A stretch of DNA of 64,000 nt, taken from Escherichia phage JP4. A program made the translations under genes and the position numbers. The stretch is from the sequence record PQ330092, one strand, 5' to 3'. The notes under the pieces were generated by a model. It was not told where the DNA came from, did no database searches, and worked only from the letters and a program-made list of their open reading frames with translations. This document shows, piece by piece, positions 41,232 to 63,664 of the stretch; position 1 is the stretch's first letter, and every line of letters begins with the position of its first letter.

Positions 41232-41474
41232 ATGAAAGTACTGACAGAACTAGAAATGTATCATAGATTTAATAAGTACTATCATTTACTTAAGCCTATA
41301 CAGAGGATTAAATGTCCATTTGAAGAGAAACAGGTTTTAATCTATGAGCACAAGTTCTTTGTATCATTAGGTACAGATCAACAAGAGTACTATTTGACGT
41401 TGTACTTGATTACATTAATAGATTTAATTCACTATAAAACCAAACAAGCTAATAAAGAGAAATATGAAAACTAA
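41232..41474 (+). CDS. Array paralog, short class (80 aa; start refined)
   Basis: ATG 1 nt after upstream stop; motif LGTDQQEYY. Confidence 0.6.
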   Translation: MKVLTELEMYHRFNKYYHLLKPIQRIKCPFEEKQVLIYEHKFFVSLGTDQQEYYLTLYLITLIDLIHYKTKQANKEKYEN

Positions 41475-41808
41475 TATACAACTCAAGGTATATAAATCAT
41501 TTGAACATACATATATCAAAAGTAGTCTATGTAGAGATGTAATGGATTACAAGGGTAAGCCATTCACAATTACCTATGATTCTTATGTTAGTGATTTATA
41601 TATATCATTTGTTAATTACGAAAATAAAATATACAAGCACGTTGATATTAAAGATTTAAGTACTTTATCACCAGAGGAATACTTTCAGGAATCATTAGTA
41701 TGGGATTTAGAGTTTCCTATGCCATTAGTACATAAGATGATAGTACTAATGAAAGAATCTAAACAGGAGCCTAATGGTGATTATGAAGAACACACAGTTG
41801 AGTATTAA
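41464..41808 (+). CDS. Array paralog, long class (114 aa), EEYFQESLVWD motif
   Basis: First long-class member; overlapping start. Confidence 0.65.
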   Translation: MKTNIQLKVYKSFEHTYIKSSLCRDVMDYKGKPFTITYDSYVSDLYISFVNYENKIYKHVDIKDLSTLSPEEYFQESLVWDLEFPMPLVHKMIVLMKESKQEPNGDYEEHTVEY

Positions 41809-42178
41809 AAGTACTGATAATATTAAGAGTTATACAAGCTCAAGTACTGTGACAATCGAAGTGAATTCTCTTAATGCTGGTAATACAGTAGATAAGTTCT
41901 TTATTGCTCAAGGGTACAGGAAAGATATTCATCAATATTGTTCAGTATATGGGGAGTACAATAGTACTGAAGATATAATTTATTGGTCAACACATCAAGA
42001 TTATATAACTAAAATTGGCGTTCCAGATGTTAGTACTTTATCTGAAGAAGAATACTTTCAGTACAGCTTAGTACATGATGTACCTATACCTTTAGGGTTA
42101 ATCAAGGGTATACAGGAAGAGGTTCATAAGCTTAAATCCATGAGTAAAGGTACTTTCATTAGAACAGTGCAGTACTAG
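41774..42178 (+). CDS. Array paralog, long class (134 aa), EEEYFQYSLVHD motif
   Basis: Overlapping start (alternative 41783). Confidence 0.65.
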   Translation: MVIMKNTQLSIKSTDNIKSYTSSSTVTIEVNSLNAGNTVDKFFIAQGYRKDIHQYCSVYGEYNSTEDIIYWSTHQDYITKIGVPDVSTLSEEEYFQYSLVHDVPIPLGLIKGIQEEVHKLKSMSKGTFIRTVQY

Positions 42179-42207
42179 CTTGACAGAACTTTTCATTACT
42201 GATATAG
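42179..42207 (+). promoter_or_regulatory. Internal array promoter TTGACA-17-TATAGT
   Basis: Read directly. Confidence 0.55.
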
Positions 42208-42237
42208 TACACTAACGTTAATCATAGGGTAAAAATT

Positions 42238-42483
42238 ATGTTAAATTTTTTAAATTTTCTTATCGTCTTGTGTATTGTTCTTGGGATTGCACCATTTGTA
42301 TTGTATTTCATGGATTCAGATGAAATGCAAAAGATGAATTGCACAAGGACAGGACAGAGTAGAGTAGAGACGATTCTTATGCCTGTTACGGTTATTGTTA
42401 ATAATATGCCCATTACCAACATGGTCCCTACCCTAACGACAACGTACCAGTACTCTTGTGCTGACGGAGAGAGGTGGAGATGA
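42238..42483 (+). CDS. Small membrane protein (81 aa) interrupting the array
   Basis: Own promoter TTGACA-17-TATAGT 42179-42207; hydrophobic N-terminal helix; no family motif. Confidence 0.55.
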   Translation: MLNFLNFLIVLCIVLGIAPFVLYFMDSDEMQKMNCTRTGQSRVETILMPVTVIVNNMPITNMVPTLTTTYQYSCADGERWR

Positions 42484-42791
42484 AATTTAATATAGCAAAA
42501 ACATCGAGTATATGTATTTTTGGTTATGCTGATGAGTTAGGTGATATTGACATTCTTTTGTACAAAAAGGATGGTGTTATGCATTTCAAGTACCAGGATG
42601 AAGAGGCAGACAATTATCTTTTACCTAATTTAGTACAAATGCAGGAAGAGGAATTATTCCAGTACAGCTTAGTATACGACATTGATATTTGCACGATGCC
42701 AGTACTAATTAGTATTCAAAAAGTGATGCTCGATATGTATGATAAGCTAATACAAGGTATGTCAGGGAGGATCATTGAAATTGACATATAA
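42474..42791 (+). CDS. Array paralog, long class (105 aa), EEELFQYSLVYD motif
   Basis: Overlapping start. Confidence 0.65.
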   Translation: MEMKFNIAKTSSICIFGYADELGDIDILLYKKDGVMHFKYQDEEADNYLLPNLVQMQEEELFQYSLVYDIDICTMPVLISIQKVMLDMYDKLIQGMSGRIIEIDI

Positions 42792-42987
42792 GAATATACC
42801 TAATGCATATGAAATGAAGTACAGGGAGTTTATTAAAAATGTACACACCGATCCTTTTAATATCAAAATATCAGAGTTTGATGTATTATTTTATCTAGGG
42901 TCAATAGCACAGGATCAATGCGTTGATAAGCTCATATGGTCCTTGAAAATGGAGATACAATGCAGACCCAAATATATAAAAAGGTAG
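42775..42987 (+). CDS. Array paralog, short class variant (70 aa)
   Basis: Motif FYLGSIAQDQCV. Confidence 0.6.
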   Translation: MKLTYKNIPNAYEMKYREFIKNVHTDPFNIKISEFDVLFYLGSIAQDQCVDKLIWSLKMEIQCRPKYIKR

Positions 42988-61357: not shown

Positions 61358-61917
61358 ATATCAATGATTACCAATTTCATAGGCTTGAATTTCGTCATTG
61401 TGTTGCATTTGCAAAAACATTGATGTGCATCATTGACACTCTTTCATCCAAACAATTTCGTAAGGATAATGATTTATTTCTGAAAAAAGGTCGTGTGACA
61501 TCATCCGATATCTGTGTTGAACTATTTGTTGATATCAGTGTTGATACCGGAGACAGTACAAGGGTTGGTTGTATAGGTCATATTGGTACACATTGCTTCA
61601 CATGGAATCCAAATACAAGTCAAGTACGAATTGATTATAGAAATTCACGTTGGGTTGATCTTAGTACTGAATCCGATTTAGAATCAGCTATGTTCCAGCT
61701 AAGTTTAATTCACAATCCTAATGAACTTCTTTACATTATTACTTTCAGTTATCTGTTACAAAACTACGATAAACCATCAGGGTTTTTCATAGAATCGGAT
61801 ATAGAAGAAATTATGGAAGAGTTTCCTAGTTTAAAGGATATTCTGGTAGAAAAAGATTTCTATGAAGACTTCAGAGATTTATACGACATGCACTTGGAGT
61901 TATTTAAGAATGGATAA
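61354..61917 (+). CDS. Array paralog, long class (187 aa), AMFQLSLIHNP
   Basis: ATGA overlap. Confidence 0.6.
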   Translation: MNINDYQFHRLEFRHCVAFAKTLMCIIDTLSSKQFRKDNDLFLKKGRVTSSDICVELFVDISVDTGDSTRVGCIGHIGTHCFTWNPNTSQVRIDYRNSRWVDLSTESDLESAMFQLSLIHNPNELLYIITFSYLLQNYDKPSGFFIESDIEEIMEEFPSLKDILVEKDFYEDFRDLYDMHLELFKNG

Positions 61918-62428
61918 AGATGATATTCTAATTAGACTAATCAACAGTCTGTTAAATTTCGTGAATAGTGCCAGTGATACACACAATATAGGTGACATTG
62001 AATTCAAATCATTTGGAATGTACGGTGAGGAAAAAACATATTATGCATCAATGAAATTCCAAGATTATTATGAAATGTTAGTTTCATTATCATACGAAGA
62101 TGTGGACCCAAGATGGAGTTCCAGTATTTCACTATCGAGAATGGTAATTCGTAGTAAACATCGTTACATTTCGTCAAAGAATACTCCCAACTTGTTTGAT
62201 ATTGTTTTAAATGAAAATACCAATCCTATATCTAAACATGATATCGTACCTTTAACTGATGAAGTACTTTTTCAATTGAGTACCATTTGTGATGAAGATG
62301 TGATATCATGTATGAAAATTTATGAGAAGGTTGGGAGTGATATTCCCATGAACTATTACCTAACGATAGATGGAACATACCTCAGAGATGAAGCTCTAGC
62401 GTACATTGACAGTGTTTTACCAAAATAA
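61910..62428 (+). CDS. Array paralog, long class (172 aa; start refined), EVLFQLSTICDED
   Basis: Terminator 62429-62457 downstream. Confidence 0.55.
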   Translation: MDKDDILIRLINSLLNFVNSASDTHNIGDIEFKSFGMYGEEKTYYASMKFQDYYEMLVSLSYEDVDPRWSSSISLSRMVIRSKHRYISSKNTPNLFDIVLNENTNPISKHDIVPLTDEVLFQLSTICDEDVISCMKIYEKVGSDIPMNYYLTIDGTYLRDEALAYIDSVLPK

Positions 62429-62457
62429 AGACCCGTATTGGGTCTTTTTGTGTTTAC
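62429..62457 (+). terminator. Rho-independent terminator inside array
   Basis: AGACCCGTATTGGGTCT + TTTTGTGTTT. Confidence 0.7.
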
Positions 62458-62460
62458 GTC

Positions 62461-62489
62461 TTTACAGTAGCATTCAGATGTGTTATAAT
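62461..62489 (+). promoter_or_regulatory. Internal array promoter TTTACA-17-TATAAT
   Basis: Read directly; follows terminator 62429-62457. Confidence 0.55.
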
Positions 62490-62516
62490 CGCTTTTAATA
62501 GAGTACAGGAGAAGAT

Positions 62517-63083
62517 ATGAGTACTGAATTAATTAAAGAAGTTACCTTACTTCTGAAGCATTGTTTTAAGTTCATTCCTGATACTGGTTCACGCCAGTAC
62601 ATTAAAGTTAATGAGAAATATAACATCAATATCCTTGTATCTGAAACTGCGAGCAGTTATGCTAACATTGAGTTGGATTCTGAAGAAAAATATACAGTAT
62701 TACAAATCATAGCAGATGTACAACGTAAACAAGATTATCGTTCTTCATTTTACAACGATTATCTGTGTGTTTGCTCAAACTTCAGTGAGAATAAAATTGT
62801 GTATAAGAATTTATACACACATGAAGTGATTGATACATATAATTATAAAATTTCATCTGATGAATACAATGTGCTAATGTTCAACGCAAACCTTTTGTAT
62901 GATGCCAGTACTGTACGCTGTTTAGAGTTAGCATATAAAATTCCAAAGATCATGGAAAGAAAAGATTTGATTCACTTTAAAACTATTTTAAAATACAGTA
63001 CAAAAGAATTAGAGGATTTAGTACAGGCTCTTAAGAATTTCATTAATGAACATGTACCTGTTAAATTCGAGGATGCACAATGA
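62517..63083 (+). CDS. Array-associated protein (188 aa), degenerate motif
   Basis: Promoter 62461-62489; SD CAGGAGAAG. Confidence 0.6.
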   Translation: MSTELIKEVTLLLKHCFKFIPDTGSRQYIKVNEKYNINILVSETASSYANIELDSEEKYTVLQIIADVQRKQDYRSSFYNDYLCVCSNFSENKIVYKNLYTHEVIDTYNYKISSDEYNVLMFNANLLYDASTVRCLELAYKIPKIMERKDLIHFKTILKYSTKELEDLVQALKNFINEHVPVKFEDAQ

Positions 63084-63664
63084 ACCATATCAGAACTAAA
63101 ATTTTGAGACTCATGCATGACATTGCAGAACTTTCAGAGATTCATGACATTACAGAAATTGTTGAATTTGATGATTATCGACTGAAAATTGAAAACAAAT
63201 CCAAACATCGTTTTGGATCAGTTCAGTTGGATGTATATAAAACTTATGAATTTTCTAAAAAAATTAAAAGTTCATGGGATACGATTACTATGTACATTCG
63301 CACATCCAGAAATCGTGAACGTATTGGTTCTATTTCTTCTAATATGGTATTTGCGAATGCATTACATGAAAAAATGAATAAAATTGTAGAATCTGATTTC
63401 AGTGAAGATGATGGTTTTATTGGGTTGGATGTTCCACCAGAATTAGACCAAAGTGAAGATATTCGAGATGCATTCATTTTCCAGAAATCATTGTTGGACA
63501 ATTACAAAGAATTCGAGTACTTAATGCTTTGTTACGATACTGCAAAAGTTCTTGATTGTGGTGAACTAGTTATGTACAATGATTTTATCAATTACAAGAC
63601 TGATGTTCTGAATACACTACTTCAAAATATAGAATCGGTTAAGGAAAAATATGAACGCTTATAG
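63080..63664 (+). CDS. Array paralog, long class (194 aa), AFIFQKSLLDNY
   Basis: ATGA overlap. Confidence 0.6.
   Translation: MNHIRTKILRLMHDIAELSEIHDITEIVEFDDYRLKIENKSKHRFGSVQLDVYKTYEFSKKIKSSWDTITMYIRTSRNRERIGSISSNMVFANALHEKMNKIVESDFSEDDGFIGLDVPPELDQSEDIRDAFIFQKSLLDNYKEFEYLMLCYDTAKVLDCGELVMYNDFINYKTDVLNTLLQNIESVKEKYERL

Follow-up and report, generated by a model that had tools for sequence, protein, structure and literature searches.

Expansions of small proteins have been described in jumbo phages: in the Klebsiella phage RaK2 nearly 10% of the gene products are paralogues (PMC3622015), and Bacillus phage G encodes a zinc-ribbon family of about 35 copies (PMC7824862). Here we analyse a stretch of 64,000 nucleotides from Escherichia phage JP4 (record PQ330092), referred to as the window, in which 40 open reading frames (ORFs) coding for proteins of 103–207 amino acid residues follow one another on the plus strand between positions 41464 and 63664, mostly with overlaps of a few bases. 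The dipeptide Phe-Gln (F-Q) is found in 38 of these ORFs and forms the centre of an acidic-aromatic block, which a first-pass annotation had likened to the recognition motif of viral 3C/NIa-type proteases, with a shared-fold core helix or a docking motif as alternatives. The first of these alternatives is the one we favour, and the block is probably the core-helix structural signature of a fold shared by a large, lineage-specific family.

Conservation of the Phe-Gln block

With a profile of the block region, 37 of the 40 array ORFs are recognized as clear paralogues and one as a weak member, while two are doubtful, since ORFs 56749-57351 and 60815-61357 match the family profile below significance. 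The pattern [DE]x(1-3)FQx[SANQ][LTCFMVI] occurs in 36 of the 40 ORFs, compared to a mean of 0.32 and a maximum of 3 in 1000 residue shuffles. All the examples that had been given for the block between 41464 and 63664, i.e., EEGYFQGS, EEYYFQQS, EEEYFQYS, and DELFQES (to be read as EDELFQES), were found there. Identity among paralogues falls to about 10–20%, and is about 17% for the family overall, yet the block is retained. When 1.84 billion cluster representatives were searched exhaustively with the profile (E ≤ 0.001), 117 matches were returned, 116 of them genuine; nine were already known and 107 are new, with lengths of 65–210 residues and a block near the C-terminus. The remaining match, P0109 from an ENA metagenome (997 residues), was rejected as a false positive, as a 58-residue tandem repeat with Y-W-L-F-Q-Y-S-V-I-G-D accounts for its 10 scoring stretches and resembles translated satellite DNA.

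Position statistics were obtained for 145 sequences anchored on F-Q (38 from the window and the 107 new cluster representatives). With Phe as position 0 and Φ as a hydrophobic residue, the block reads [S/T/D](-5) E(-4) E(-3) x Φ(-1) F(0) Q(+1) x(+2) S(+3) [L/T](+4) [V/I/L](+5) [Y/H/W/F](+6) [D/N](+7). Position -6 is hydrophobic in 68% of the sequences and -5 is S/T/D/N in 82%; Glu or Asp occupies -4 in 92% and -3 in 83%, -2 is variable, and -1 is Y/L/F/I/M in 94%. Gln(+1) is present in 144 sequences, whereas the residue directly after it varies (28 Tyr, 25 Leu, 23 Gln, 21 Glu, 18 Asn, and 8 Gly, Gly making up about 6%). Ser follows at +3, two residues past the Gln, in 88% of cases, and the block continues with L/T at +4, V/I/L at +5 (97%), Y/H/W/F at +6, and D/N/S/T/E at +7 (about 80%, mainly Asp or Asn). 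It is located 37–86 residues from the C-terminus, and a helix-like hydrophobic repeat pattern comes after it. The simpler consensus E-E-(Y/L/F)-F-Q-x-S proposed earlier does recur throughout the array, but the true block is longer and its Ser does not adjoin the Gln. F-Q is intact in each of the 37 clear window members and in all 107 genuine new representatives. The alignments show no invariant polar residue elsewhere: only Phe and Gln are invariant and Ser is nearly so.

The predicted fold and the place of the block in it

Two members from different subfamilies were modelled with AlphaFold2. The product of ORF 53793-54245 (long class, 150 residues, alignment of 46 sequences) gave a predicted local distance difference test (pLDDT) value of 89.6 and a predicted template modelling (pTM) score of 0.85. 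Its model consists of an N-terminal helix (residues 3–21), seven β-strands, and a short helix (93–97), followed by the block helix (103–109, E-E-Y-Y-F-Q-N), a helix (115–129), a strand (135–138), and a short helix (140–144). The product of ORF 57357-57719 (short class, 120 residues, 39 sequences; pLDDT 86.3, pTM 0.81) is predicted as a β-meander with the block in helix 64–73 (E-D-E-L-F-Q-E-S-L-V), followed by helix 82–98 and a terminal strand (111–118). In both models the 10-residue block has pLDDT values of 90–97 and, according to DSSP, its helix begins exactly at -4, directly behind the residue in position -5 (S/T/Q); in the long-class model the following helix begins directly after D114, which is Asp(+7). 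The two subclasses are linked by hhalign with a probability of 91.5% (E 8.5e-7, 31 columns) over the block region. Structure prediction, which the first-pass annotation had recommended as a check, therefore places the block in a helix of a folded domain in both models and not in an exposed linker. Block and flanks are ordered with high pLDDT, rather than forming the intrinsically disordered region expected of a short linear motif.

Among five close paralogues (51945..54245), mean pairwise identity is 0.48 for the N-terminal helix, 0.18 for the central β region, and 0.59 for the block together with the long helix. The architecture is that of a conserved helical scaffold combined with a hypervariable β-sheet. 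At the start of the block helix, the features of an N-cap with a hydrophobic staple are all found, i.e., S/T/D/N at the N-cap, hydrophobic residues at N' and N4, and a helix right after the cap.

How the single residues of the block might contribute can be proposed from helical periodicity. Ser or Thr at -5 would cap a short amphipathic helix beginning at the first Glu (E-E-x-Φ-F-Q-x), with the staple formed by hydrophobic residues in positions -6 and -1. Φ(-1), F(0), L/T(+4), and V/I(+5) would face the core, with +3 on that same face, and the variable positions -2 and +2 (i, i+4) would lie on the opposite one. The helix would end at Ser(+3), and a short connecting segment (L/T-V/I-aromatic) would lead to the long C-terminal helix, capped by Asp(+7). 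The block would then act as a hinge between the hypervariable β-sheet and the conserved helical scaffold and might be kept since the fold requires it, not for cutting by a protease. The family proteins, about 100–210 residues long, mostly acidic, and non-virion, might be early, diversified binders of host components that employ the variable β region, with a role in host takeover or counter-defence. The isoelectric point (pI) has a median of 4.8 and is below 5.5 in 31 of the 40 array proteins. No membrane-like segments were detected in the family proteins apart from one that depends on a doubtful upstream start: for ORF 50738-51223 the TTG start in the ORF list lengthens the N-terminus by a hydrophobic stretch, the sole such segment of the family. 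The true start of this ORF is probably further downstream, and it was aligned from 50843.

Some considerations weigh against this interpretation. The assignment of residues to the core or to the opposite face is deduced from helical periodicity and not from model coordinates. Helix capping does not usually need an absolutely invariant Gln or so high a share of acidic residues at -4 and -3 (92 and 83%), and a functional surface could be involved. As to function, the suggested role is conjectural, the family having no annotated homologues, and early expression is presumed from the position in the genome and from the equivalent region described in the CBB paper.

Alternative explanations for the conserved block

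If the block were a protease site, a chymotrypsin-fold protease of the 3C/NIa type would cut after the Gln and the array would encode pro-proteins or decoy substrates. In favour of this proposal of the first-pass annotation, the core E-x-x-Y-F-Q (P6 Glu, P3 Tyr, P1 Gln) of the site cut by the tobacco etch virus (TEV) nuclear inclusion protein a (NIa) protease is present in 12 of the 40 window ORFs and in 50 of 147 family sequences, L-F-Q resembles the human rhinovirus (HRV) 3C site, and TEV protease accepts many residues at P1'. The resemblance to E-x-x-Y-x-Q-(S/G) is real to that extent, but Gly or Ser comes next in just 5 of these 50 sequences. F-Q followed by Gly, Ser, or Ala occurs anywhere in the protein in only 17 of 147, and the sole exact E-x-x-Y-x-Q-G of the window is EEGYFQGS in ORF 54861-55310. 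Glu is found at P6 in 77% of the family and Tyr at P3 in 41%, the remaining P3 residues being chiefly L/F/I/M, so that many members lack the Tyr. The conserved Ser is at P2', whereas the residues at P1' vary, most of them being bulky or acidic (Y/L/Q/E/N). Furthermore, the block is helical in a compact domain (pLDDT about 90–97 in the two models), neither extended nor disordered, and a cut after the Gln would detach the C-terminal helix and strand of the predicted domain. When a protease was looked for, tblastn searches with approximate query sequences of TEV NIa-Pro and HRV 3C turned up nothing credible among 50,697 phage records, the proteome not having been profile-scanned for remote homologues. 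The prohead protease gp21 of phage T4 cuts after Glu within proheads, and a T4 gp21-like prohead protease is the sole protease named in the genome papers on RaK2, phAPEC6, and Sharanji. The phAPEC6 counterpart of window positions 51222-56000 is gp430c-445c, with the remaining array genes presumably in the same range of gene products (gp), and in the virion proteome of phAPEC6 (62 proteins) none lies between gp347 and gp549. This means that packaging does not bring the family to the place where the prohead protease acts. Taken as a recognition site for a 3C/NIa-type protease, the block is very improbable. Such a site would have meant polyprotein or decoy biology in the style of eukaryotic viruses within a bacteriophage, and the evidence removes this surprise.

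A common docking surface is unlikely, too, but deserves more credit than the protease site. The E-E/F-Q helix would be the shared interface to one host hub protein or phage machine and the variable β-sheet would provide target specificity, making the family one of adaptors or decoys. Gln in 144 of 145 sequences and two acidic, probably exposed positions at about 17% overall identity agree with such an interface, as do the conserved scaffold with its hypervariable region and the dozens of copies per genome across several phage genera. However, each conserved position can also be explained structurally (N-cap, staple, amphipathic face, capping of the following helix), the block lies in an ordered helix rather than in a disordered linear motif, and there is no known partner. 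In a more specific version, to which we give a similarly small chance, the E-E...F-Q helix would serve as the common plug by which some 45–50 diversified early proteins per genome attach to one host or phage machine, for instance a protease, chaperone, or polymerase hub; the array would then be a modular arsenal of adaptors or decoys that serves host takeover or counter-defence, each β-sheet recognizing a different host target, built on a fold without a solved relative. We regard it as distinctly improbable that F-Q-x-S belongs to a catalytic or small-molecule pocket in a family of enzymes or sponges. Certain phage counter-defence proteins do act as small ligand sponges, and the polar Gln and Ser are invariant in an otherwise very divergent family, but no further invariant polar residue appears in the alignments and neither Pfam nor NCBIfam yields a match. 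Finally, there is hardly any chance that the block is kept as a recombination or regulatory signal at the DNA or RNA level with the peptide being incidental. That each gene contains a single block at a constant distance from its end might suggest this, but synonymous codons for Phe, Gln, and Glu are used near-evenly (TTC 21 and TTT 17, CAG 20 and CAA 18 at the invariant sites), and Ser is encoded by both AGY (17) and TCN (12), two codon families not joined by a single synonymous step. As synonymous codons are freely mixed at the invariant residues, the block is conserved as protein and not as DNA, and the DNA-level explanation was rejected on these grounds. The structural signature helix remains the explanation that we prefer.

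Distribution, genomic context, and comparison with known systems

The kin of the window are Asteriusvirus-type (PBECO4/121Q, Rak2-like) jumbo coliphages, with about 35 matching Escherichia and Salmonella phage records; PBECO4 is 98.7% identical to window positions 51000-56000. Every gene beneath these matches is annotated as 'hypothetical protein'. Relatives identified by word-indexed searches, for which the alignments of the long and the short class were used, came only from Asteriusvirus-type phages or from assemblies labelled E. coli, and RaK2_00413 of Klebsiella phage RaK2 is among the cluster representatives. In a RaK2-like Klebsiella phage (OU509535), about 33 members form a 30-kb array on the same strand (locus 3170-33628), the residue after the Gln being mainly Tyr (F-Q-Y-S-T). 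On a metagenomic contig (Logan SRR14611563; 25.7 kb, 29% GC), 25 of 35 genes called in the 14.4 kb read are members (locus 2080-13981). Phage E9.1 possesses 39 motif ORFs in a same-strand array; the array of the window runs past the window end, and the E9.1 equivalent adds about five members there. Foldseek searches of BFVD retrieve as structural relatives of the modelled fold uncharacterized proteins of 121Q, SP27, RaK2, GAP32, and Serratia phage BF. The family with the F-Q block therefore occurs throughout the clade of Rak2-like jumbo phages.

The members tested match PHROGs 9317, 12674, 13866, 19795, 22855, 28680, and 36945, all of unknown function, with E-values of 1e-50 to 1e-135. Searches of Pfam and NCBIfam with the family gave nothing, PDB sequence profiles nothing significant (weak matches to eRF1 constructs, E 0.61), Foldseek against the PDB no solved relative (best E 0.64), and literature searches no description of this family. 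Compared to E9.1 orthologues, the ratio of nonsynonymous to synonymous polymorphism (pN/pS) is 0.23 overall, with 0.26 upstream of the block, 0.20 in it, and 0.15 downstream; no positive selection is indicated segment by segment at such short divergence. There is gene turnover, as ORF 44556-45062 has no orthologue in E9.1, and ORFs 56749-57351 and 61862-62428 are 87–90% identical to their E9.1 counterparts, their neighbours 98–100%.

The array covers about 22 kb of the window, with more past its end, and makes up >6% of the genome of about 350 kb. Window positions 1-14905 equal 20115-35019 base for base, an exact 14,905-bp duplication (period 20,114 bp). Positions 1-14905 read as the tail of a preceding copy of the direct terminal repeat (DTR), cut by the window start, the second copy being full (Table 1). 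It is as if the record joined right and left DTRs or represented a concatemer junction. Unique DNA therefore starts near 35020, and the array lies 6–29 kb inside the left repeat. Published DTRs of Asteriusvirus measure 20.7–21.5 kb, one of them confirmed by restriction mapping. In the CBB paper, the equivalent region of a related phage was deduced to be a probable early, host-takeover region.

Table 1. Coordinates of the array, its members, and other features in the window
Feature	Position	Strand	Block or motif	Basis
Tandem array, 40 ORFs	41464..63664	+		ORF list, motif table, profile check
Short-class members	41464-41808, 41774-42178 (EEEYFQYS), 42474-42791	+	Blocks at 41668-41706, 42041-42079, 42642-42680	
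Members	43930-44484, 44556-45062, 45052-45363, 45335-45901, 46208-46714, 46767-47309	+		Motif table
Members	47306-47836, 47829-48452, 48657-49172, 49169-49513, 49452-50066	+		Motif table
Three short-class paralogues	50738-51223, 51220-51579, 51576-51935	+	D-x-x-x-L-F-Q-[EA]-[SA]-L-V-F-D	
Five adjoining close paralogues	51945-52415 (EEYYFQQS), 52417-52887, 52884-53327, 53327-53815, 53793-54245	+	EEYYFQ[QN][SN]	
Long-class member, 150 residues, AlphaFold2-modelled	53793..54245	+	SEEYYFQNSTVYD at DNA 54096-54134	
Members	54242-54556, 54861-55310 (EEGYFQGS), 55307-55843	+		Motif table
Clear members	56198-56758, 57357-57719, 57709-58044, 58004-58588, 58648-59124, 59121-59615	+		Profile check, motif table
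Short-class member, 120 residues, AlphaFold2-modelled (EDELFQES)	57357..57719	+	QEDELFQESLVWD at DNA 57543-57581	
Clear members	59581-59943, 59927-60340, 60328-60831, 61354-61917, 61862-62428, 63080-63664	+		Profile check, motif table
Weak divergent member	62517-63083	+	F-N for F-Q (F-N-A-N-L-L-Y-D)	Block-region profile
Near-consensus sigma-70 promoter	42180-42208	+		Consensus scan, intergenic gap
Terminator-like hairpin, then near-consensus sigma-70 promoter	46702-46723, then 46740-46768	+		Consensus scan, intergenic gap
Complete DTR copy, about 20.1 kb	14906..35019			Exact duplication, period 20114

Small ORFs without the F-Q block are interspersed at 43195-43581, 45888-46229, 48454-48648, 50249-50648, and 54556-54864, the last one between members 54242-54556 and 54861-55310. 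A second tandem family consists of 23 ORFs for proteins of about 63–95 residues with an L-G-T-N-Y-Q-E block and an invariant Gln of its own (PHROG 4148, unknown function); it is located at 36135-41474, 42775-43223, and 55821-56208, some of its copies lying among long-family genes. A relationship between these proteins of about 70 residues and the long family was rejected by hhalign (probability 0.06%). The two promoters, situated in two of the few intergenic gaps, read TTGACA-17-TATAGT (42180-42208) and TTGACA-17-TATCAT (46740-46768), each with an upstream TG, and would be consistent with early transcription units read by the host RNA polymerase; total counts in the consensus scan for promoters and terminators were not above those in shuffles.

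The TEV NIa site, E-N-L-Y-F-Q-(S/G), has its P6 Glu, P3 Tyr, P2 Phe, and P1 Gln in common with a third of the family. It differs in that the family has its Ser at P2' after a bulky or variable P1', that the putative site is part of a helix predicted within a folded domain, and that the host of the family is a bacteriophage without an NIa-like protease detectable by tblastn. The HRV 3C site, L-E-V-L-F-Q-G-P, is approached by E-L-F-Q of the short subclass; however, the family lacks Gly-Pro after the Gln, where Glu, Tyr, or Gln and then Ser are usual, and the helical context differs as for TEV. With capping motifs of the form Φ(N')-S/T(N-cap)-x-x-x-Φ(N4), the family shares a hydrophobic -6, S/T/D/N at -5, an acidic first turn, and a hydrophobic -1; both AlphaFold2 helices start at -4, and in the long-class model Asp(+7) stands immediately before the following helix. 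An invariant Phe-Gln, in contrast, is no requirement of generic capping motifs, and this pair is specific to the family. Immunity proteins of the SUKH/SMI1 type are small α+β proteins encoded in tandem diversified arrays and in this respect resemble the family, but no match to a Pfam SMI1_KNR4/SUKH profile or to the fold was obtained. The family is large and unannotated, with a confidently predicted fold that has no solved relative, and its arrays are conserved across jumbo phages of E. coli, Salmonella, and Klebsiella. Its recognizable block signature offers a simple handle to find and classify members, and families of this kind are prime candidates for functions in host takeover or anti-defence. 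The zinc-ribbon family of Bacillus phage G has another fold and another motif, but with the small-protein expansions of jumbo phages in general the family shares dozens of tandem, fast-diverging, and uncharacterized paralogues within one clade.

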